64,000 nt of DNA from Bacteriovoracaceae bacterium. Its GTDB lineage: Bacteria > Bdellovibrionota > Bacteriovoracia > Bacteriovoracales > Bacteriovoracaceae. The stretch covers positions 288,001 through 352,000 of the forward strand of contig JBLWTJ010000003.1 in the NCBI GenBank assembly GCA_048270185.1, given 5' to 3'. The notes below the pieces were generated by a model that saw only the letters and a list, made by a program, of their open reading frames with translations, was not told where the DNA came from and did not search any database. Below, one piece after another: positions 6,776 through 48,707 of this stretch. The position numbers were made by a program, and so were the translations under genes. Positions within the stretch are counted from its first letter, which is position 1. Each line of letters begins with the position of its first letter.

Positions 6776-7597
6776 ATGAGAGTAGGCACTAATGTCACAT
6801 CACAGCTTGCTCAGAGGATGTTAGGTAATGTGAATGATCATCATACTGGTGAGCTTCGCAAACTAGCTGAGTCTAAGCGTATATATGAAGCGGCGGTTGA
6901 TCCGGCCGGTGCTGCTATTGCGCTTAAAATGACATCTCAAAATCGTTCTAATCTACAGGCCCAGCGCAATTCAAATGATAGTTATTCAATGCTTGAAATT
7001 GCAGATGCAACAATGGGAAGCATGCAAGATATCGCAGTTCGTTTAAAAGAGCTTTCAGTGCAAATGGCAACTGATACATATAACGATCACGATCGTATGA
7101 ATACGAACCGCGAGTTCAAACAGTTAACAACTGAGATAATAAGAATACAAGAAAATGCACAATACAATGGAACAAAGCTCTTAGATAGCTCTGGTCGAAA
7201 CTTAGAGATGCAAGTCGGTATTCGTAACGATGCTAAGAATGATCGCATTACTTATAATATTAGTGATGTAATGAAATCCCACCGTAATCTTTTGGCCCAA
7301 AATGTTCTCACAAAAGAGGGTGCAAGAAATGCAATGGGTGCCGCTGATGCACTAATTGATAAGATTTCTAGTTCACGTGCAAAAGTTGGTTCAACGATGA
7401 AAAGAGTTGAAAGTACAACAGCAAACCTACAACATAACTATGAAAATTCAGAGTCAGCAAGATCAAAAATTGAAGATACGGATTATGCAAAATCAACGGC
7501 AGCAAAGGCCTTAGATTCAATTAAGATGGAATCGGCGACAGCATTCCTCGCGCAAGCTAATGTTGCACCAGGAGCTATCGCCAAGCTACTTGGTTAA
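6776..7597 (+). CDS. fliC: Flagellin (short, D0-D1 only)
   Basis: MRVGTNV..., DPAGAAIA, QAQRNSND, LEMQVG, SRAKVGS, RSKIEDTDYA, FLAQAN flagellin N- and C-terminal motifs. Confidence 0.92.
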   Translation: MRVGTNVTSQLAQRMLGNVNDHHTGELRKLAESKRIYEAAVDPAGAAIALKMTSQNRSNLQAQRNSNDSYSMLEIADATMGSMQDIAVRLKELSVQMATDTYNDHDRMNTNREFKQLTTEIIRIQENAQYNGTKLLDSSGRNLEMQVGIRNDAKNDRITYNISDVMKSHRNLLAQNVLTKEGARNAMGAADALIDKISSSRAKVGSTMKRVESTTANLQHNYENSESARSKIEDTDYAKSTAAKALDSIKMESATAFLAQANVAPGAIAKLLG

Positions 7598-9771
7598 TTG
7601 ACTCCCAAAGCCTTTTTTACTTTTCCAAGTGTAATCGTTTCACCAAGTTTTATTAATTCACCATTTTGATTGATAACAAAATAGGCCGGTACGCCAACCA
7701 TTCCTTGTGACTCTAACCAACGGCCAATATCTTCATCTTTCTTTGTCCAGTCACCAAGTAAGAGATCAACTTGATTCGTATCAACCATTTCTTTAAAACT
7801 ACTTGTATTAATCACAAGTTTTTCATTTACTTTACACGTAATACACCAGCGTGCAGTGAAATCGATAAAAGTTAATTTCTTATTAGTGATTCGCTTTTGC
7901 ATCTCATCTTCTGTCCACTTATCCCACTTTAGTCCTTCTCGATTCTTATCTTCTAAAAGTGAGTTACCATTGCCATTTGTATTTAGTGGCGTTCTAGCAG
8001 CTGTAAATCCTAAGTAAAGGACTGGTATAAGAACTAGAATCGTTGCGAATGTTTTCTTTGTCATATTCTTTCTCAAGTAGAAGAGGAAGAAGATAAACAC
8101 TAGCGTTGAATTTATATACATTACTGCTACAGGAGATCCAACTAGGGCCGAATAAACATCAAGTAGCCAAACGACAGTTAGAACAAGCGTTAGCCCTAAA
8201 ACTTTTTTTACATGATCCATCCACATACCTGGCTTTGGTAAGAAGCGAATAAGGGCAGGAAAGAATCCTGTTAAAAGGAAAGGAGCACTAAGACCTAGGC
8301 CTATAAAGATAAAAATTAAAAAGATATTGGCCGTTGATTCAGAGAAAGCAAATGTAAGTGCCGTTCCCAGAAATGGAGCAGAACATGGTGTTGAAAGAAC
8401 TGTTGCCAATACACCACTGATAAAGTCTCCATAGAATGTATTTCTTACCTCAACATTACCAAGCTTTGATCCCCCTGGAGTTCTAAACTCAAAGAGTCCA
8501 AAGAGATTTAGTGCCATAATAAATATGATGAAGACCATAATGGCAACAAAGAGGGGAGATTGAAGTTGGAAGCCCCAACCGATCTGTTCTCCTGTTGATT
8601 TGATGGCGATCACACTTGCAGCAAGTGCGGCAAAAGTGGCAATGACCCCTAAAGAGTAGAAGAGGTTGTGCTTAAGTACTTTTGAGCGACTTTCATTTGA
8701 GTGTTTAATGAGTCCAAATAACTTAAGGGAGATAACTGGAAGTACACATGGCATGATATTTAGGATTAAACCACCTAGAAAGGCCATCATTAAGAAATAA
8801 GGAAGAGATGATCCTGCTTCATTATCCACGATCTTACTATCTGTTGCTTTAGTATTGTCTACCGGAGTTAAGCTACTATAGAAAGTCTTGAATGATTCTT
8901 CAGAATTTAATCCGAAGTTTGTGACTTCAAAGTCCACTCGATATGATTCCCCATTGATAGGGTCATTAAAGATGAACTTGAAATTTAAAGGCTCTTTGAA
9001 CTGTCCATCAGCAGGAAGAGGATACTCAGGTTCAAGGTATTCTCCATCCCATTCCATTTGATAAAGAGCATAGTGATTACCTTTTCTATCTTTAAATATT
9101 TTCTCTCTCTTAAAAGTGAGTGGACTTGTTGTATATGGTGTTAAAATATTTTGACCTGGCAATAGTTTTTGATTCTCTCCAGTAATATTGTAAACAAGGG
9201 CCAATTGTCCTTCGTGCTTTATCACCGAGAGCTGAAGGTAGTCAGGAGCTTCTTTTTTCATCGGAAGATTATTAAATCTTTTAAGAAGTTCTGGGGCGGA
9301 AACTTTGATTTGATTATCTGACGAAGTAAAGACACCATCTGTAAATGCTCCGCTTATTTTCCTTTCTTGTGGAATACAAATGTCATGGCAAACAAGGTAC
9401 TTAATATCAACGACAAAATCTTTGGCATTAGCAAAGCTTGTACCTAGATGATAGAAGTACGTGTACTCATCTTTGTGACCAAATGTTTGAATATCTCCCT
9501 GTTCAATAAATTTATGTGGCCTTGGCCATTCAACTTTTTCAAGAACGATCTTATCTCCTGCTTGGAAGAACTCAACCTCAGTAGCAAGACCCGAATCTCC
9601 TGGGTTTTCCCAGTAAGTATGCCAGCCATCTTTATTCTTCATATTAATGGCAAGATATGTTGAGCTATCTTTTACAAAAGAAGTAACCTCAAGCTTTACA
9701 AGATTTGAGTAGTCCTTCTTTTCTGCAAAGGTTAGGAGAGTGATGGCCATCACTAGGAGTGTCTTTAACAT
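7594..9771 (-). CDS. dsbD: DsbD-family protein-disulfide reductase (N-terminal domain, TM domain, thioredoxin)
   Basis: GWHTYWENPGDSG, CHDIC, LNIMPCVLP, TPCSAPFLG, DFTARWCITC. Confidence 0.88.
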   Translation of the reverse strand: MLKTLLVMAITLLTFAEKKDYSNLVKLEVTSFVKDSSTYLAINMKNKDGWHTYWENPGDSGLATEVEFFQAGDKIVLEKVEWPRPHKFIEQGDIQTFGHKDEYTYFYHLGTSFANAKDFVVDIKYLVCHDICIPQERKISGAFTDGVFTSSDNQIKVSAPELLKRFNNLPMKKEAPDYLQLSVIKHEGQLALVYNITGENQKLLPGQNILTPYTTSPLTFKREKIFKDRKGNHYALYQMEWDGEYLEPEYPLPADGQFKEPLNFKFIFNDPINGESYRVDFEVTNFGLNSEESFKTFYSSLTPVDNTKATDSKIVDNEAGSSLPYFLMMAFLGGLILNIMPCVLPVISLKLFGLIKHSNESRSKVLKHNLFYSLGVIATFAALAASVIAIKSTGEQIGWGFQLQSPLFVAIMVFIIFIMALNLFGLFEFRTPGGSKLGNVEVRNTFYGDFISGVLATVLSTPCSAPFLGTALTFAFSESTANIFLIFIFIGLGLSAPFLLTGFFPALIRFLPKPGMWMDHVKKVLGLTLVLTVVWLLDVYSALVGSPVAVMYINSTLVFIFFLFYLRKNMTKKTFATILVLIPVLYLGFTAARTPLNTNGNGNSLLEDKNREGLKWDKWTEDEMQKRITNKKLTFIDFTARWCITCKVNEKLVINTSSFKEMVDTNQVDLLLGDWTKKDEDIGRWLESQGMVGVPAYFVINQNGELIKLGETITLGKVKKALGVN

Positions 9772-41450: not shown

Positions 41451-42395
41451 TTAATTTCTAGCAATAACTTCGTGACAGAAAACATCTCGATGATCAATTG
41501 AGCGAGACTCTGGAATAACTTGCTTGCAAGCTTCCACTGCAAGTGGGCAGCGGGTGTGAAAATTACATCCAGGAGGTGGATTAAGAGGTGAAGGCAGCTC
41601 TACATTCTTTAGAGGAGGAAATGCCTTAATTACTTCATTATCAACTGCGTGGGCACTCTTTAAGAGAGTCTTTGTATATGGATGGTGAGGATTATTAAAA
41701 ATCACATCACTTTTTCCATACTCACAAACTTTTCCAAGGTACATAACCAGAACTTTGTCTGCGATATAACGAACGACTGATAGGTCGTGAGAGATAAAAA
41801 TATAAGTTAGGTTAAATTCTTCTTGTAAGTCTTTTAATAGATTTAAAACTTGGGCCTGAACAGAAACGTCTAGTGCTGAAACTGGCTCGTCGAGAATGAG
41901 AACCTTAGGCTTGAGAATAAGGGCGCGGGCAATACCTATTCTTTGGCGCTGACCTCCACTAAACATATGTGGGTACTTGTGGGCATGTTCTCTCCTTAGA
42001 CCTACTGTCTCCATAAGTTCACAGGCGCGATCAAATGCTTCAGATTTTGTTACATTCTCATTAATAAGCAGTGGGTCTGCAATAATTTCCCAAGCCTTCT
42101 TACGAGGATTTAAAGATTCAAGAGGATTTTGGAAAACCATTTGAATCGACTTATAAAGTTCTTTAGAAGAGAGAGTGGAAAAGTCTCGGCCACCAATTGT
42201 AATAGTTCCATCTGTTACTTGCTCAAGTGCCATCAGACATTTTGCAAGAGTCGACTTTCCGCAACCAGATTCACCCACAATCCCAAGAGTTGTTTTTTCT
42301 TGGAGAGTAAAGCTTAGTCCGTCGATGGCCTTCACGGCCTTGTCTCCAACTGGATAGTATTTTTTTAAATTACTTACTTTTATTGTATCAATCAT
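41451..42395 (-). CDS. dppF: Dipeptide ABC transporter ATP-binding protein
   Basis: GESGCGKST, YPHMFSGGQRQRI, DEPVSALDVS, ELPSPLNPPPGCNFHTRC. Confidence 0.92.
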   Translation of the reverse strand: MIDTIKVSNLKKYYPVGDKAVKAIDGLSFTLQEKTTLGIVGESGCGKSTLAKCLMALEQVTDGTITIGGRDFSTLSSKELYKSIQMVFQNPLESLNPRKKAWEIIADPLLINENVTKSEAFDRACELMETVGLRREHAHKYPHMFSGGQRQRIGIARALILKPKVLILDEPVSALDVSVQAQVLNLLKDLQEEFNLTYIFISHDLSVVRYIADKVLVMYLGKVCEYGKSDVIFNNPHHPYTKTLLKSAHAVDNEVIKAFPPLKNVELPSPLNPPPGCNFHTRCPLAVEACKQVIPESRSIDHRDVFCHEVIARN

Positions 42396-42404
42396 TTTAT
42401 TACC

Positions 42405-43367
42405 TTAATTAAGAGGGTGAATGCAGCGAAGTGAACGATCATTATGAATCACAATCTTTGGTAGCATGTCACATTGTGCTGATGCATATTCACACCTCTT
42501 GCTAAACTGGCAACCTGTAGGACGATTGGCCAGATCAGGAACCATTCCCTTAATAGAGTAAAGTGGTGCATTTATATCATTTGTAAAAGATGGGATCGAT
42601 TTTAGAAGGCCAAATGTATAAGGATGTCTTGGCCCTTCAATGACAGCTTTTGTCGGTCCTTTCTCAATCACTTCACCGGCATACATTACTTGTAGATTAC
42701 GAGTGAAATCTTTTACAACGGCAAGATCGTGAGAAATAAAAATGACGGCCATTCCCGTTTCTTTTTGAATATCAATGATAAGTTCTAAAATTTGTTGTTG
42801 AACAGTTACATCTAGGGCCGTCGTCGGCTCATCGGCAATAAGTAGCTTAGGACTTGAAGCGATGGCCATGGCAATCATCACTCTTTGTGCCATCCCTCCT
42901 GAGAGCTCATGAGGGTAAGACTTCATACGCTCTTTGGGAGCAGGAATTCCGACTTGAATGAGAAGTTTTTCAACTCGTTCTTTACGCTCTTGCTTTGTTA
43001 GCGTTGGCTCGTGAATAATCAGAACTTCTTCAATTTGATTCTCAACAGTGTAGCAAGGGTTTAGTGAACTCATCGCATCTTGAAAGATCATTGAAATATC
43101 GCCGCCGCGAATTTGTTGCCAAGATTTATCATCAAGTTTTTGCAGATCAACATCATTGAAGCTTAGTTCGTCGGCTTCAACAATGGCGTTATCATCTAGG
43201 AGCCCCATGATGGCCATACTTGTAATTGATTTACCACAACCTGACTCACCAACGATACCAAGAGTCTCACCAGCTGCAACATCAAACGAAACATTGCGAA
43301 CAGCGTGGATAGGGCCTTTCTTTGTTTTAAAATGTATATTTAAGTTTTTTACTTTTAATAGACTCAT
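42405..43367 (-). CDS. dppD: Dipeptide ABC transporter ATP-binding protein
   Basis: GESGCGKS, YPHELSGGMAQRV, DEPTTALDVT. Confidence 0.92.
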   Translation of the reverse strand: MSLLKVKNLNIHFKTKKGPIHAVRNVSFDVAAGETLGIVGESGCGKSITSMAIMGLLDDNAIVEADELSFNDVDLQKLDDKSWQQIRGGDISMIFQDAMSSLNPCYTVENQIEEVLIIHEPTLTKQERKERVEKLLIQVGIPAPKERMKSYPHELSGGMAQRVMIAMAIASSPKLLIADEPTTALDVTVQQQILELIIDIQKETGMAVIFISHDLAVVKDFTRNLQVMYAGEVIEKGPTKAVIEGPRHPYTFGLLKSIPSFTNDINAPLYSIKGMVPDLANRPTGCQFSKRCEYASAQCDMLPKIVIHNDRSLRCIHPLN

Positions 43368-43381
43368 TTCTACCTATCTTT

Positions 43382-44272
43382 TTATCTTTTTAATTTGGGA
43401 TCAAGGGCATCTCTAAGTCCATCACCAAATAGGTTTAGGCCTAGAACAACCGCAAGAATACAAAGGCCTGGAAGCGTAACTAACCAGGGAGCACTTTGAA
43501 TATAAGGCCTAGCATCACTAAGCATGATTCCCCATTCTGGAGTAGGAGCCTGTACACCAAGGCCTAGGAAACCAAGGGCCGCAGTTGAGAGGATTCCTTC
43601 TGATAGTCCTAACGTTATTTGAACAATCAATGTCGCCATACAATTTGGAAGTATTTCTCTAAGCATAATGCGAATAGGAGAGGCACCAAATGTTTTTGCC
43701 GCTTGAACATATTGAAGACCTTTAATTTCCATGACGTTTGCACGAATGAGTCTTGTAAATGAAGGAACACTAACTAGTGCTACTGCAAAGACTGCATTCA
43801 TAAGCCCTGGCCCAATAACTGAGACAACAATGATAGCTAGTAAGATGCTTGGATAGGCCATGAGTATATCAATAAACCTCATGATAACTGTATCAGTCTT
43901 TCCCCCAAAGTAACCAGCAAGTAAACCAAGTACTGTCCCGATTAGTGTTGAAATAAAGACAATTGAGATACCTACAAAGAGAGAAACTTGAGCACCGTAG
44001 ATTAGTCGAGATAGAACATCTCGTCCTAGATCATCTGTACCGAGAAGAAATTTTACACTTCCTCCTTCTGACCAGATTGGTGGAATTCTAAGTTCTCCTG
44101 GAAAGATTTCACTTGCTCCATGAGGAGCAATAATTGGAGCAGCAATGGCAATTAAAATAAAGCCTAGAACGAGTGCCAGGCCAAAGACCGCACCTTTATT
44201 ATCACTGAAATGATCCCAGAAATCTTTTAGTAATTCTTTATTCGTAATATTTGATTTTGTTAATTCACTCAT
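43382..44272 (-). CDS. dppC: Dipeptide ABC transporter permease
   Basis: LGTDDLGRDVLSRLIYGA, PTPEWG, GDGLRDALDP. Confidence 0.93.
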   Translation of the reverse strand: MSELTKSNITNKELLKDFWDHFSDNKGAVFGLALVLGFILIAIAAPIIAPHGASEIFPGELRIPPIWSEGGSVKFLLGTDDLGRDVLSRLIYGAQVSLFVGISIVFISTLIGTVLGLLAGYFGGKTDTVIMRFIDILMAYPSILLAIIVVSVIGPGLMNAVFAVALVSVPSFTRLIRANVMEIKGLQYVQAAKTFGASPIRIMLREILPNCMATLIVQITLGLSEGILSTAALGFLGLGVQAPTPEWGIMLSDARPYIQSAPWLVTLPGLCILAVVLGLNLFGDGLRDALDPKLKR

Positions 44273-44284
44273 ATTATTTTCCGC

Positions 44285-45310
44285 TTAATTTCCACTGGCA
44301 ATTTTTGGATTGACGATTGAGTAGATGATATCAACACACATATTGATGAAGATAACCATCAGGGCAATAAAGAGGATTCCTCCTTGAATCACTGGATAGT
44401 CGCGAGCATGAATACTTGCAACTAGCCAGCGGCCAATACCTGGCCATGAAAAAATAGTTTCAGTAAGAATCGCTCCAGTAATGATACTTCCAAAGAGAAG
44501 GCCAATAACAGTCACGATTGGAATGAGGGCATTTCGAACAGCGTGCTTCCAAATAATTTTTTGATAACTTTGGCCTTTGGCCTTTGCTGTTTGAATATAA
44601 GGGGCCTTTAATACTTCCAGAACACTTGAGCGAGTCATACGCGAAATAACCGCAAGAGGAATTGTTCCCATGGCAATTGTCGGTAGGATTAAATGCTTGA
44701 GTGCCGAATTAAAAGGCGCAAATCCATCAAATGAAATGACATCTGGATTTAGAGTATCGATTAACATAAAACCAGTTAGGCGAGGGACATCAAAGAGAAC
44801 ATCCATGCGACCTGAAACAGGAGTTATTCCCATATTAACAGAGAAGATAATAATGAGGATGAGTCCCCACCAAAAAATAGGCATCGAGTAACCGACGAGA
44901 GAAGTTCCCATAAGAACATAGTCAACGAGTGAGTTTCTCTTAATTGCCGCGTACACTCCTGCCGGTATTCCTATAAGGATAGCAAAAATCATGGCACAAA
45001 TTCCAAGCTCTAGAGTTGCTGGAAAGCGCGAAAAGAACTCGTTAACAACAGTTTGTTTTGTGACAATTGAGACTCCAAAGTCGCCACTAAAAACATTTCC
45101 CATGTAGACAAGGTATTGCTCTAAGATAGGCTTATCAAGTCCTAGGGTTTGTTGCATGGCCTTGTAAACAGCAGGATCAGCTCCACGCTCTCCTAAGAGA
45201 AGAAGGACAGGATCTCCTGGTACAAGTCTTACAACGATGAATGAAAATAAACTAATCCCGATGACAGTCGGGATTAGTTGTAAAAAACGTTTCTTTAAAA
45301 AATTCTTCAT
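44285..45310 (-). CDS. dppB: Dipeptide ABC transporter permease
   Basis: PGDP, RFPATLEL, SMPIFWWG, ETIFSWPGIG, RDYPVIQG. Confidence 0.93.
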   Translation of the reverse strand: MKNFLKKRFLQLIPTVIGISLFSFIVVRLVPGDPVLLLLGERGADPAVYKAMQQTLGLDKPILEQYLVYMGNVFSGDFGVSIVTKQTVVNEFFSRFPATLELGICAMIFAILIGIPAGVYAAIKRNSLVDYVLMGTSLVGYSMPIFWWGLILIIIFSVNMGITPVSGRMDVLFDVPRLTGFMLIDTLNPDVISFDGFAPFNSALKHLILPTIAMGTIPLAVISRMTRSSVLEVLKAPYIQTAKAKGQSYQKIIWKHAVRNALIPIVTVIGLLFGSIITGAILTETIFSWPGIGRWLVASIHARDYPVIQGGILFIALMVIFINMCVDIIYSIVNPKIASGN

Positions 45311-45315
45311 AATAA

Positions 45316-46917
45316 TTATTCGAGACTTACCTTATCAAAGATATCATTTCCTAGTGGGTGAATTTTGTAGCCTTTAACATTGCTTCTCATTGCTCTGTGA
45401 ACTGTTGAATGGAAAAGAGTAATCCATGGAACATCTTTCTTAAAGATCTCTTGGGCCTTTAGGTAGTGTGGCGTTCTATCTTTACGTTCACTTAATCGCT
45501 TGGCCGCAGTGACTTCTGTATCGTATTCTTTATTACACCAGTTTGCATAATTTGAACCGGCCTTTGCTCCTTCACAGCTTAGTAGCATATAGAGGAAATT
45601 ATCTGGGTCGCCATTATCACCAGTCCAACCCATCTGTAGCATAGCGTGTTCACCTGCATGAGCTTTCTTAAGATATGTTGGCCAGTCGTAAGTAATGAGT
45701 TCTACTTCAATCCCTACTTTTGAAAGATCTTCTTGCATTAGTTCACCCATCTTCTTTCCATTTGGATTATATGGGCGTGACACAGGTAGAGTCCAAAGAG
45801 TTGTTTTAAAACCATTTGGAAGGCCTGCTTTCTTTAGTTCTTCTTTTGCTTTTTCAATATTGAAATTATGATCTTTAATATCGTTATTATATCCCCAAAT
45901 TGTTGGTGGCATTGGATTCTTCGCAACTGTTGCAAACCCTAAATAGATTGGTTCAATATATGTACTACGATTGAGGGCATAGTTAATAGCACGTCTTACG
46001 TGGATATTATCAAATGGCTTCTTTTGCGTGTTTAGGGCAAGGTATCCAATATTAAGACCAGGCCCTTCTAGAACTTCGATATTCTTGTCAGCTCTAAGTG
46101 CCGCAATATCTGTTGGAGCTGGTTGAGTGGCGAGGTGACATTCTCCGGCCGTAAGCTTTTGAGTTCTTACTGAAGCATCTGGTGTGATTGAGAAAACCAT
46201 TCTTTCAACTTTTGGAGCACCACCAAAGTATTCTTTGTTGGCCGTGTAGCGAATCATTGTGTCTTTTTGGTATGAACCATAGATAAATGGACCAGTTCCT
46301 ACTGGTAAACGATCATACTCTTCTGGAGTTCCCGCCGCTAACATACTTTCTCCGTATTCGCGAGATAGAATACTTGTGAATGCCATGGCGAAATTTGCTA
46401 GCAGTGGAGCTTCTGGATGGTGAAGTGTGATGACAACTTGGTGAGAATCAGTCTTTGCAATATCTTTAATGATATTAGACATTCCCATTCCATCCCAGTA
46501 TTCATAAATACCACCGCTAACTTTATTATACGGATGATCTTTTTTAAACATTCGATTAAATGACCATACAACGTCACTTGCATCTAGCTCTCTCGTTGGT
46601 TTGAAGTATTTAGTTGTATGAAATTTAACTCCCTTTCTAATATTGAAAGTGTAAGTTAGTTGATCTTGAGATACTGTCCAACTTTCAGCAAGAGAAGGGA
46701 TAATATTTGTCGTCCCAGTTTCAAATTTAACTAGTCGATTAAATAGTGGGTAGGCTGCAGCATTGTGTGAAGGCCCATCTGTTAAAAACTGAGGGTTAAA
46801 TCCCGAAGGTGAACCCTCTGAACAATAAACAAAGGTCTTAGTGTTTGTTCCTTTCTTCCCAGAACAAGACACAAGTAAAGAGGCCAGCATTACTGACGCC
46901 ATAAGGATTTTAAGCAT
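45316..46917 (-). CDS. dppA: Dipeptide ABC transporter substrate-binding lipoprotein
   Basis: Lipobox LVSC; VYCSEGSP, PVGTGPF, RPYNPNG, GWTGDNGDPDNF. Confidence 0.93.
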   Translation of the reverse strand: MLKILMASVMLASLLVSCSGKKGTNTKTFVYCSEGSPSGFNPQFLTDGPSHNAAAYPLFNRLVKFETGTTNIIPSLAESWTVSQDQLTYTFNIRKGVKFHTTKYFKPTRELDASDVVWSFNRMFKKDHPYNKVSGGIYEYWDGMGMSNIIKDIAKTDSHQVVITLHHPEAPLLANFAMAFTSILSREYGESMLAAGTPEEYDRLPVGTGPFIYGSYQKDTMIRYTANKEYFGGAPKVERMVFSITPDASVRTQKLTAGECHLATQPAPTDIAALRADKNIEVLEGPGLNIGYLALNTQKKPFDNIHVRRAINYALNRSTYIEPIYLGFATVAKNPMPPTIWGYNNDIKDHNFNIEKAKEELKKAGLPNGFKTTLWTLPVSRPYNPNGKKMGELMQEDLSKVGIEVELITYDWPTYLKKAHAGEHAMLQMGWTGDNGDPDNFLYMLLSCEGAKAGSNYANWCNKEYDTEVTAAKRLSERKDRTPHYLKAQEIFKKDVPWITLFHSTVHRAMRSNVKGYKIHPLGNDIFDKVSLE

Positions 46918-47219: not shown

Positions 47220-47252
47220 GCGGGCCTTAAATCAGATTGATCTAAGGCCCGC
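47220..47252 (-). terminator. Stem-loop downstream of the Cys-rich gene
   Basis: GCGGGCCTTA...TAAGGCCCGC 10-bp inverted repeat, 14 nt after the stop. Confidence 0.7.
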
Positions 47253-47266
47253 AGTAATTTATTTAA

Positions 47267-48508
47267 TTAGAATTTTGCTTTTGTATCTAATTCATAAGTC
47301 TTTGACTTAAGTGTCTGCCCTGGAACTTTTGATTCAAGAGGGAAGACAGTGATTGTAACTTTTAGTTTACGAGATTTTTCAAACGCTCTAAAAAGTCCTC
47401 TCTTAATCTTTTCAAATCCATGCTTAGAAAGCTCTTCTTTAAGTAGGATATTTCCATTTTCAAGAAGTGTTTTTTCGAAAGTTAGTAGATCAATTGTCTT
47501 TTTAAAATGGATCTCTTTCTTTTCTTTGTCATAGATTACGATTTCAGCTTTAAGCTCTTTCATTGCTTCAAATGAAGATACTTCAAGTTCAAACTTACCT
47601 TTAACACCAACTTTAACACTCTTTGGAGTTACTAGAAGTGGAGCTTTTGCTTCATCTAGGTCAAAGAATTCAACTTTAAGAGTCGATTCGTAGTTGTAGT
47701 CAGATGTCTTATTAAAGTCTGCAACTTGAAAATTAACTTGAGTCGAAGCCTGATTTAAGTTTTCAACTAGAGTTTCAAAGCTCTTCATTTCTTTTGAGAA
47801 GTTTAGAGTAAAGTTTGCATCTGCTTTATCAAGTGCACCGATGTATTGAACTTTTACTTTGTGAGTTACATTTTCTTTTTCAGTGTATGGAACAGTTTCG
47901 TACTTAGTACATGCATATGGCTCTGAACGATACTTTGTAACATTACGACATACATATCTTTGGTATGGAACGTTTGAACATACGTTGCGATCTGGTTCTC
48001 TATGACAACGTTGAACTGGACGGTTGCTACATACGTAGTCTCTGTATGGCTCTTGGCTACATGTTTGACGTCCTGGCTTTGTTTCACAAACACGACGCCC
48101 TGGTCTTGTTTTACATTCTTGTCTACCGTTTACTGTACGACAAACTCTTTGTGGACTAGTTGTGTGACACTCTTGGCGAGAAGGACCAGTTGTACAACGA
48201 CGACGGTACTTTGTTTCGTAACGACAGTCACGCTCATATTCTGTGCGACATACATTGCGTCCTGGTTCCCAACGACATTCGCGGCGGTAATCAGTTTCGT
48301 ATCCACACTCTTCTGTTTGGTATGGAACTTGGTTATAGCATGTACCTTGATATGGCTCTTGCTTATACTTAGTAACATCTATTTCTTTTGATAATACTTG
48401 AACATCATTGTCACCACCATTGAACGAAAAGTTTAATGAGTGATCTTGGGCCTGTGCCCCTGAAAGTGTAAGCACAAAGAATACAAGTGCTAAAACCGAT
48501 TTAAACAT
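47267..48508 (-). CDS. Secreted protein with a 16-Cys, Arg-rich repeat region
   Basis: Signal peptide ending AQA; 16 Cys between aa 57 and 200; beta-rich C-terminal domain; AGGGGG SD. Confidence 0.85.
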   Translation of the reverse strand: MFKSVLALVFFVLTLSGAQAQDHSLNFSFNGGDNDVQVLSKEIDVTKYKQEPYQGTCYNQVPYQTEECGYETDYRRECRWEPGRNVCRTEYERDCRYETKYRRRCTTGPSRQECHTTSPQRVCRTVNGRQECKTRPGRRVCETKPGRQTCSQEPYRDYVCSNRPVQRCHREPDRNVCSNVPYQRYVCRNVTKYRSEPYACTKYETVPYTEKENVTHKVKVQYIGALDKADANFTLNFSKEMKSFETLVENLNQASTQVNFQVADFNKTSDYNYESTLKVEFFDLDEAKAPLLVTPKSVKVGVKGKFELEVSSFEAMKELKAEIVIYDKEKKEIHFKKTIDLLTFEKTLLENGNILLKEELSKHGFEKIKRGLFRAFEKSRKLKVTITVFPLESKVPGQTLKSKTYELDTKAKF

Positions 48509-48707
48509 ACATCCCCCTTAAGAATATTGATTACTTCTTTTAGCGAGATTTGCCTTGGTAAGACAAAAAAAATCTAAGTTAATGAAAGTATGTGGTGTAA
48601 TTGTAAGATAATGTAAGAAAAATGACAGGGTATTTTTGAGTAATTTTGAATTGTTGGTTAGAAAATGGCCCCACTTTCAGTTCGTGAGGCCTTGTATTTT
48701 TTACAAA

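Follow-up and report, generated by a model that had tools for sequence, protein, structure and literature searches.

Cystine-braced beta-hairpins are known from peptides such as tachyplesin, polyphemusin, gomesin, protegrin and arenicin, while core-less elongated beta structures, with both faces exposed and built on charged and beta-branched residues, are known from the central sheet of OspA and from the E-G5 rods of SasG and Aap, SasG being a rigid spacer on the bacterial surface. Bdellovibrio-type bacteria make their living from other bacteria, to which they attach and which they enter; a large share of the surface and contact proteins of these predators still awaits identification. The cystine ladder as a motif is treated in an article whose relevant passages describe the theta-defensins, with a cyclic cystine ladder of three parallel disulfides, and green-algal HAP2, in which a cystine ladder-like motif places three parallel disulfides across an inserted loop (PMC6327110). 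Here, a stretch of 64,000 nucleotides from a Bacteriovoracaceae bacterium (contig JBLWTJ010000003.1, positions 288,001 to 352,000; the window in what follows) was analysed for one gene on its minus strand, which encodes a protein of 413 residues whose cysteines form a mirror-symmetric ladder. As a whole, the best explanation is that the product is an exported, disulfide-laddered hairpin rod with a mechanical role, which we regard as probable, with appreciable room for error; its structural part, in which the disulfides are predicted, is held with considerably greater confidence.

The protein has only 16 cysteines, at residues 57, 68, 78, 87, 95, 105, 114, 123, 132, 141, 150, 160, 168, 177, 187 and 200. 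A recount in the translation gave the same inter-Cys gaps as the initial annotation, namely 10,9,8,7,9,8,8,[8],8,8,9,7,8,9,12, and the palindrome that had been described about the central C123-RTVNGRQE-C132 is borne out, with the exception of the outermost pair, where 10 faces 12. The codons of C57 (48338-48340) and C200 (47909-47911) are the limits of the feature as first annotated. The motif VTKY was indeed found at both ends, as VTKYKQEPY at residues 45-53 and VTKYRSEPY at residues 190-198, and the richness of the strands in Arg, Thr, Tyr and Val holds over residues 43-215 (R 26, T 19, E 18, Y 17, C 16 and V 14 of 173). Pairing Cys i with Cys 17-i, as had been proposed, gives the predicted bonds 57-200, 68-187, 78-177, 87-168, 95-160, 105-150, 114-141 and 123-132. 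Adding the residue numbers of the two partners yields 255 in seven of these pairs and 257 in the outermost one. When all 15 gaps were shuffled, at least six of the seven mirror pairs were equal in 467 of 1,000,000 trials, and shuffling of the 13 inner gaps returned six equal pairs out of six in 2,363 of 1,000,000. Taken on the window protein alone, the mirror symmetry is suggestive, being unlikely by chance but not overwhelming; it is decisive because the relatives keep the mirror spacing too.

These relatives were collected by a word-indexed protein search (E <= 0.01), which returned 108 first-round homologues with a best non-self match of 77% identity. Those that carry a name are recorded as hypothetical or "putative exported" proteins, from Halobacteriovorax, Bacteriovorax and Bacteriovoracaceae, including the Halobacteriovorax "putative exported protein" CBW26323.1, and a precomputed Pfam domain was found in none of the 108. 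A profile search of 1.84 billion cluster representatives yielded 450 proteins at E <= 0.001 and 145 at E <= 1e-30. Within the family the homology is full-length, from the signal peptide through the mirror ladder to the C-terminal beta domains, and the base of the ladder is conserved, with gaps 10,9,8,7,9 ... 9,7,8,9,12. Among the first-round homologues, 107 of 108 have an even number of ladder cysteines and 102 have all inner mirror gaps equal, the six imperfect ones comprising four one-residue offsets, one extra cysteine and one N-terminally short protein.

A pooled set of 227 proteins, reduced to 200 complete-looking ones (starting with M, the ladder being preceded by 35 or more residues and followed by 100 or more) by dropping 27 probable fragments, provided 100 distinct gap patterns with 5-38 cysteines, and the number of rungs across the family ranges from 3 to 19. 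Even Cys counts are found in 95 of these patterns, and 75 are perfect inner palindromes, with 14 others off in one pair; in all, mirror gap pairs were equal in 640 of 689 cases, against 307 expected when the inner gaps were shuffled within each pattern. The symmetric patterns themselves differ widely, as exemplified by 9,8,7,5,[9],5,7,8,9, by 10,9,9,9,9,5,[8],5,9,9,9,9,12, by 11,7,6,7,6,7,6,3,[8],3,6,7,6,7,6,7,12, by 11,7,5x10,[9],5x10,7,12 and by long runs of 8. The protein P0213 (438 aa) carries 26 cysteines, with ten 5-residue gaps in each arm. Among the relatives the central gap varies freely, with 4, 8 and 9 the commonest values, and this freedom fits a turn.

The pairing also predicts that cysteines should be lost by symmetric pairs, and one homologue behaves in this way. 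In P0077, the gaps 29,17,8,[8],8,17,31 correspond to the common 14-Cys pattern without Cys 2, 3 and 5 and their partners 13, 12 and 10, and at the three mirror pairs so vacated R now faces D, Y faces A and A faces W. In P0052, gaps that alternate between 10 and 14 in the N arm face gaps of 12 and 12 in the C arm, so that the sum over two rungs is kept. Together with the predicted structure described below, the symmetry of the homologues and the symmetric loss of cysteines support the proposed pairing of Cys i with Cys 17-i, the bonds themselves being predicted ones.

The full-length protein was modelled with AlphaFold2 (AF2) from an alignment of 36 sequences, with a mean predicted local distance difference test (pLDDT) of 88.7 and values of 82-95 per 10-residue block over residues 31-230. 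According to the secondary structure assigned by DSSP, residues 34-224 of the model form one antiparallel two-stranded hairpin, turning at N127-G128, so the NG that had been read as a classic beta-turn does serve as the turn in the model, and G128 is nearly invariant in the family alignment. The model thus agrees with the predicted topology of a single hairpin projecting from a beta-rich C-terminal region. The strands are interrupted only at residues 82-83/172-173, 108-110/145-147 and 117-119/136-138, which are exactly the three gap-8 mirror pairs, and each of these segments carries P-G, P-S or P-D.

The position of the breaks can be read from the register of the strands. With a gap of 7 or 9, that is a period of 8 or 10, successive cysteines stay in the same strand register, whereas a gap of 8 (period 9) is off register and needs a one-residue kink on each arm. 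The parity was evaluated in 195 proteins on the inner rungs with mirror segments of equal length, excluding the outermost rung pair and the central loop. In this sample, glycine occurs in 62% of N-arm and 80% of C-arm gap-8 segments (571 pairs), and in 38% and 75%, respectively, of gap-6 segments (16 pairs), against 0-4% in gaps 3, 5, 7 and the C-arm gap 9; the N-arm gap 9 is an exception, with 19%. Proline is the consensus at a fixed position in 55-83% of the ladder segments. Across the strands, the ratio of opposite to same charges reaches 8.8 at a diagonal shift of -2, compared with 2.3 for residues in mirror position, and elsewhere it is 0.6-0.8 at shifts -3, -1 and +1, 0.5 at +2 and 1.5 at +3, a descriptive count dominated by the conserved motifs. 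These cross-strand charges fit the hairpin model.

The consensus of the gap-8 unit is identical on both arms, C-R-T-x-P-G-R-x-V-C, and the turn unit RTVNGRQE looks, from its sequence, like one more copy in which N replaces P. The variable middle of the ladder would then be a tandem array of a self-complementary unit folding back on itself, and with such an array the length could change by pairs of units. The conserved ladder base pairs two different motifs, "ETRYR" and "VPYQ". Tandem repeats at the DNA level were not found in the ladder region of the window.

On this basis, a structural mechanism can be proposed. After Sec export, residues 34-224 would fold into one long antiparallel hairpin with its turn at N127-G128, and in an oxidising extracytoplasmic space eight nested disulfides, Cys i to Cys 17-i, would close at one per 8-11 residues. 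The odd-gap segments (7 or 9) would run as regular beta-strand, while in the even-gap (8) segments a Pro-Gly kink on both arms would restore the register. The product would be a core-less ribbon with both faces exposed, standing on a base of beta-meander and Ig-like sandwich, and its edges would be guarded by proline and charge; the rod may be stiff, protease-resistant and monomeric. Its length would change when matched 9-residue "C-x3-P-G-R-x2" units are gained or lost on the two arms together. If each residue adds about 3.3 A, the textbook value, the laddered part (an arm of 67 residues) would measure about 22 nm and the whole hairpin (an arm of 94 residues) about 30 nm.

The role is a different matter, and that the rod acts as a mechanical stalk or spacer is put forward only tentatively. 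It would be a rigid extracytoplasmic stalk or reach element that holds its tip at a set distance from the Ig-like module or modules, which in turn may attach the rod to a partner. A surface-exposed or secreted stalk is more likely than a periplasm-spanning ruler, since 3-19 rungs (about 10-60 nm), tandem paralogues and fast-evolving Ig-like modules make a fixed periplasmic ruler less likely; no anchor signal was found in the ladder protein, so the periplasm stays conceivable as a location. The most far-reaching version holds that this is a new class of natural nanorod, stapled about every 3 nm, with a length of about 10-60 nm set digitally by the number of units and deployed by predatory Bdellovibrionota outside the cell for reaching or contacting prey. 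As a complete reading, this is speculative and rather unlikely to hold in every part. The prey-contact probe or envelope spacer suggested in the initial annotation is speculative as well.

The family is widespread in the phylum. Of 301 genomes searched in the phylum, 72 have a match at E <= 1e-5, among them genomes of the window's own taxonomic family, f1 (49/67), and of f15 (10/12), f14 (6/34) and f9 (4/35, all weak). The window's own genome has one copy, while some genomes have several, including tandem pairs and triplets (L013 on G210:C7, L014 on G255:C8 and L015 on G282:C9). A pattern scan of named records gave 49 loci, mostly labelled Halobacteriovorax, Bacteriovorax, Bacteriovoracaceae, Bacteriovoracia, Bdellovibrionales or Oligoflexia; the five other labels are one "Sulfitobacter sp." metagenome-assembled genome (MAG), three "Proteobacteria bacterium" and one weak "Alphaproteobacteria bacterium" MAG. 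The family member of the MAG labelled Sulfitobacter sp., L051, lies on the 1.27-Mb contig JBLHVN010000002.1, and the label of this contig is probably wrong. The sequencing runs returned by a search were metagenome DNA, apart from a single RNA run that contained 0.07 of the words, and in the ESM Atlas one Bdellovibrionota cluster was found at 0.85.

By way of the weak f9 matches, a protein of 537/538 aa was reached that is deposited with identical sequence for Bdellovibrio bacteriovorus as CAE79712.1 / WP_011164314.1; the names recorded for its family are "hypothetical protein" and "Bdellovibrio beta-sandwich domain-containing protein", and a search started from it returned 246 proteins at E <= 0.001. 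When this family was compared with that of the window by hhalign, the hairpin only was aligned (probability 99.2%, E 2.2e-19, query residues 11-194), and the C-terminal ~300 residues of the Bdellovibrio protein gave no hhalign alignment with the window family. The Bdellovibrio ladder is also mirror-spaced but has 10 cysteines, and its hairpin base is lengthened by Cys-less repeats in which an acidic, Tyr-rich "VPYQ..E" of the first arm faces a basic "RTVTKYR" of the second. In a set of 138 proteins, made up of the listed matches and the cluster members, a few of them from Halobacteriovorax clusters, 36 distinct patterns were counted; 22 of them read as perfect palindromes, and the two gaps agree in 149 of the 166 mirror pairs. 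Examples follow the form 9,5,x,5,[9],5,x,5,9, where x is alike on both arms and is 6, 7, 8, 9 or 11. The hhalign match and the mirror ladders in Bdellovibrio indicate that the hairpin module is common to both sampled main branches of the phylum. In the Bdellovibrio homologues L023 (1050-2666, minus strand) and L025 (1498-3150, minus strand), the ladder region ends with a CC doublet.

Four other explanations were considered, and the one that survives best, although it is improbable, regards the protein as a giant cationic hairpin effector, an oversized tachyplesin or protegrin whose target in the prey envelope would be lipopolysaccharide (LPS) or some other polyanion. In its favour, the bacterium has relatives among the named Halobacteriovorax predators, the composition resembles that of disulfide-braced hairpin peptides, and the ladder of the window protein has a net charge of +12. 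Moreover, with the Cys columns left out, the hairpin of the window protein is 43-53% identical to those of 31 distant homologues, compared with 14-18% for the C-terminal domains and 20% for the mature N-terminus, a far higher conservation than that of the rest, as would be expected for a conserved ligand. However, the net charge of the ladder spans -18 to +28, being positive in 74% of 195 proteins and neutral or acidic in 26%, and in P0190 (786 aa) two different repeat arrays face each other, a basic "TTRR" arm and an acidic "VPDQ" arm. There is no hydrophobic face, and the hairpin of 190 residues is joined to folded domains rather than released as a peptide, with no processing site seen. The basic tip pointed out in the initial annotation is real in the window protein, where CRTVNGRQEC is flanked by Arg and Lys, but it does not extend to the family, given the same charge spread. 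LPS binding by cationic charge was also considered as a family-wide property and was rejected on this spread.

A still less probable explanation is an oligomeric beta-barrel stem, in which the hairpins of several copies would form one long barrel or tube, as in pore toxins, with the Ig-like domains possibly acting as an oligomerisation collar. In its favour, the top Foldseek matches of the full model in the PDB were 6psn_A (E 9.3e-06), 6o2n_A, 9jsg and 5ec5_D, all pore chains, besides generic Ig domains. Nevertheless, these pore-chain matches have template modelling (TM) scores of 0.10-0.14 and a root-mean-square deviation (rmsd) above 37 A (0.14/0.11 and 42 A for 6psn_A), and what they share with the model is only "a long hairpin"; in a fold search against viral models, the TM to the query did not exceed 0.19. 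The composition also argues against a barrel. The pooled ladders of the 195 proteins contain R 16.1%, C 11.4%, V 9.5%, E 9.4%, T 8.6%, Q 7.4%, P 7.1% and Y 5.3%, against L 0.2%, F 0.2%, M 0.3% and A 1.3%, which leaves nothing from which a hydrophobic core or a membrane-inserted segment could be built, and the tip has no apolar stretch. In addition, the fixed-position proline would block the pairing of edge strands, and the variation from 3 to 19 rungs is hard to reconcile with such a stem.

Slightly behind it stands intermolecular pairing, that is, antiparallel domain-swapped dimers or an extracellular mesh cross-linked by disulfides. Mirror spacing would fit an antiparallel dimer of two extended chains too, and the odd Cys count of 5 in 100 patterns would leave a free thiol. 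Against this, a tight turn is conserved at the exact centre, with N-G, the nearly invariant G128 and a central gap of only 4 residues in 13 of the 108 first-round proteins; the AF2 hairpin is intramolecular at high confidence; and the Cys count is even in nearly all first-round homologues. Sequential small loops (Cys1-2, 3-4 and so on) or metal-binding cysteines with incidental symmetry are the least credible, as the regular spacing of about 9 residues on its own would allow a chain of small loops, and DsbA is established to make consecutive bonds first, but mirror symmetry through 100 patterns would be left without a reason, the symmetric loss of pairs 2, 3 and 5 in P0077 would leave unpaired cysteines, and the window protein, which is exported, has no CxxC or His/Cys clusters.

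The laddered hairpin rod must in turn be set against several points that weigh on it. The ladder counts come from related proteins and are not independent events; 25 of the 100 patterns are imperfect, mostly by one residue in one pair, or odd or fragmentary, and 5 have an odd Cys count. The Cys pairing is well supported, with covariation and the AF2 model as its sources, and concerns predicted bonds; AF2 may favour hairpins for repeats, and the full model has a predicted TM score (pTM) of 0.51, as expected for a very elongated shape. With respect to function, nothing that speaks to it was found among anchors, neighbouring genes, fusions or sequencing runs, and the hairpin is unexpectedly conserved for a passive spacer, which hints that the ribbon itself may bind something. 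Conservation this high in an exposed ribbon suggests that more than its length is recognised by something. The odd-Cys proteins are P0125, P0078, P0115, P0127 and P0157, one example having 25 cysteines with twenty gaps of 8; such patterns could be slippage intermediates of the repeat array, errors of repeat assembly or cases with one free thiol.

Oxidative folding adds a further difficulty. DsbA makes consecutive bonds first, and non-consecutive disulfides are handled poorly by DsbA alone. Since seven of the eight proposed bonds would join cysteines that do not follow one another, folding would probably call for an isomerase or for an ordered zipping pathway. Speaking for the ladder, the same genome has matches for DsbB in 3 places above the cut-off, for DsbA-type proteins in 7 places and for DsbD in one, the last at a distance of about 38 kb from the ladder gene. 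A search for the N-terminal domain of DsbC gave no match in this genome, which is 95.9% complete; this does not show that the domain is absent. While these points temper the proposal, what computation does show is the pairing of mirror positions, the topology of a single hairpin and the layout of the domains.

The coordinates of the gene, its modules and its surroundings are collected in Table 1. The 413-aa protein is, judging from its leader, most likely exported by Sec, and residues 2-18 of the signal peptide are a helix in the AF2 model. The Shine-Dalgarno-like AAGGGGGA is strong. Evidence for the promoter-like site is weak, as the scan gave 3 sites against 4.5 expected, and terminator-like hairpins were found 3 times against 1.1 expected. 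The gene looks monocistronic because one of these hairpins sits just after its stop codon. Several open reading frames (ORFs) of 60-130 aa overlap the ladder gene in other frames (window 47965-48391 on the plus strand and 47866-48378 on the minus strand) and are taken for by-products of its composition.

Table 1. Position of the ladder gene, its parts and selected neighbouring features in the window
Feature	Position	Strand	Basis
Whole gene, 413 codons and stop	47267..48508	-	ORF list, translation; one match in own genome
Signal peptide, residues 1-20, ending ...SGAQA, without lipobox	48449..48508	-	Read from sequence; putative cleavage site
Shine-Dalgarno-like AAGGGGGA, 3 nt ahead of ATG	48512..48519	-	Read from sequence
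Promoter-like site CTGTCA, 17 nt, TACAAT	48600..48628	-	Consensus scan, 9/12 matches
16-Cys ladder, C57 to C200	47909..48340	-	Translation; family palindromes; symmetric Cys loss
N arm, residues 34-126, Cys 57-123	48131..48409	-	DSSP E34-81, E84-107, E111-116, E120-126
Turn N127-G128 inside C123-RTVNGRQE-C132	48125..48130	-	Only break between E120-126 and E129-135
C arm, residues 129-224, Cys 132-200	47837..48124	-	DSSP E129-135, E139-144, E148-171, E174-224
Beta-meander subdomain, about residues 225-285	47654..47836	-	AF2 strands at model residues 10-78
Ig/FN3-like beta-sandwich, about residues 286-413	47270..47653	-	VIA-align over model residues 82-208
Terminator-like hairpin, 15-bp stem, 8 GC pairs, T-rich tail	47220..47252	-	15 nt past stop
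Five-gene Opp/Dpp-type ABC transporter: family-5 binding protein, two permeases, two ATPases	41451-46917	-	
725-aa ORF, DsbD transmembrane family 86 bits, weak thioredoxin-type match	7594-9771	-	Genome's only DsbD match

No Pfam-A match of the protein reached the curated cut-off (best 15.5 bits, with 24.2 needed), NCBIfam returned 0 matches, and the PDB sequence search had no match below E 0.03. Among 12 long or divergent homologues compared with Pfam and NCBIfam, 11 were without a match and one had a sub-threshold match to Cornifin.

The C-terminal part, residues 206-413, was folded alone with AF2 from 102 sequences, and the model (pLDDT 91.4, pTM 0.80) consists of a five-strand meander followed by a sandwich. 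The meander subdomain was barely covered by the fold searches. The sandwich was matched by VIA-align with Z 5.8-7.1 to many unrelated sandwiches, including GH2 domains, SbsC, FN3 and cytokine receptors, the best being 6ddu_A (Z 7.1, rmsd 4.0, 95 aligned) and SbsC 4uj6_A (Z 7.0, rmsd 2.9, 83 aligned), and Foldseek gave generic sandwiches with a TM to the target of at most 0.45. None of these matches stands out, and they are generic, placing the modelled domain in a fold class only and not in a family. In homologues of about 650-730 aa, the sandwich module occurs in three tandem copies (read in P0010, P0127, P0130, P0131 and P0137). Informative fusions were not found, as the search for longer proteins gave 4 proteins of about 727 aa with extra copies of the same C-terminal module.

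In the window, the neighbours of the ladder gene are an Opp/Dpp-type ABC transporter operon, an alanine dehydrogenase and an MBL-fold protein. The transporter lies directly downstream, beyond the terminator-like hairpin, and there is no sign of a linkage with it. Across the window and 10 loci, no shared family of neighbours was found, save for one syntenic pair of loci and one ABC-type cluster.

In the full-text literature, supplements aside, no description of a laddered-hairpin family or of a ladder of such scale was found; the portion of one Halobacteriovorax article that came up as a match deals with an unrelated protein, Bd0675 (PMC8616854). What makes this locus attractive is an uncharacterised, strongly conserved exported family, present in most of the searched genomes of the window's own taxonomic family and with a homologous hairpin in Bdellovibrio. 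The interest is mainly in structure and in oxidative folding, given that nested, non-consecutive bonds would pose the problem that the first arm must wait for the second. If true, the rod would offer protein design a simple, rigid element that can be programmed by sequence.

When compared with the known systems, the predicted ribbon shares features with each of them and departs from all. Like the theta-defensins and peptides of the tachyplesin type, it is a two-stranded antiparallel hairpin, rich in Arg, Tyr, Val and Cys, with mirror cross-strand disulfides, here predicted ones. Those, however, occur as free peptides that measure 17-25 residues and bear 2-3 rungs at intervals of a few residues, whereas the window protein would have 8 rungs spaced 8-11 residues apart on a hairpin of about 190 residues within a multidomain protein of 413 aa. 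Their cationic and amphipathic character, which goes with antimicrobial activity, is conserved, but it is not a trait of the ladder family, in view of its charge spread and of L, F and M contents of at most 0.3% each, and no sequence relation to them appeared in the Pfam, NCBIfam or PDB sequence searches. The motif of green-algal HAP2, as presented in the passages concerned, lies in a loop of 37 residues, is likened by its authors to EGF modules, has another connectivity and forms no extended ribbon (PMC6327110).

The stems of the pore formers (anthrax PA 6psn, CDTb 6o2n, iota Ib 9jsg and lysenin 5ec5) are likewise very long beta-hairpins, but they exist as hairpins only inside multi-chain barrels, have an amphipathic membrane tip and carry no disulfides; their alternation of apolar and polar residues and their apolar tip have no counterpart in the window protein, with its tip CRTVNGRQEC and flanking Arg and Lys. 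The sheets of OspA, SasG and Aap are three-stranded and unstapled, in contrast to the two-stranded ribbon with its predicted disulfide ladder. Thus, the principle of the cystine ladder is already known, and what appears new is its scale and context: if the model holds, this would be by far the longest cystine ladder found mentioned, with 8 rungs, and up to 19 in relatives, against 2-3 in the peptides, and it would form a free-standing two-stranded ribbon tens of nanometres long.

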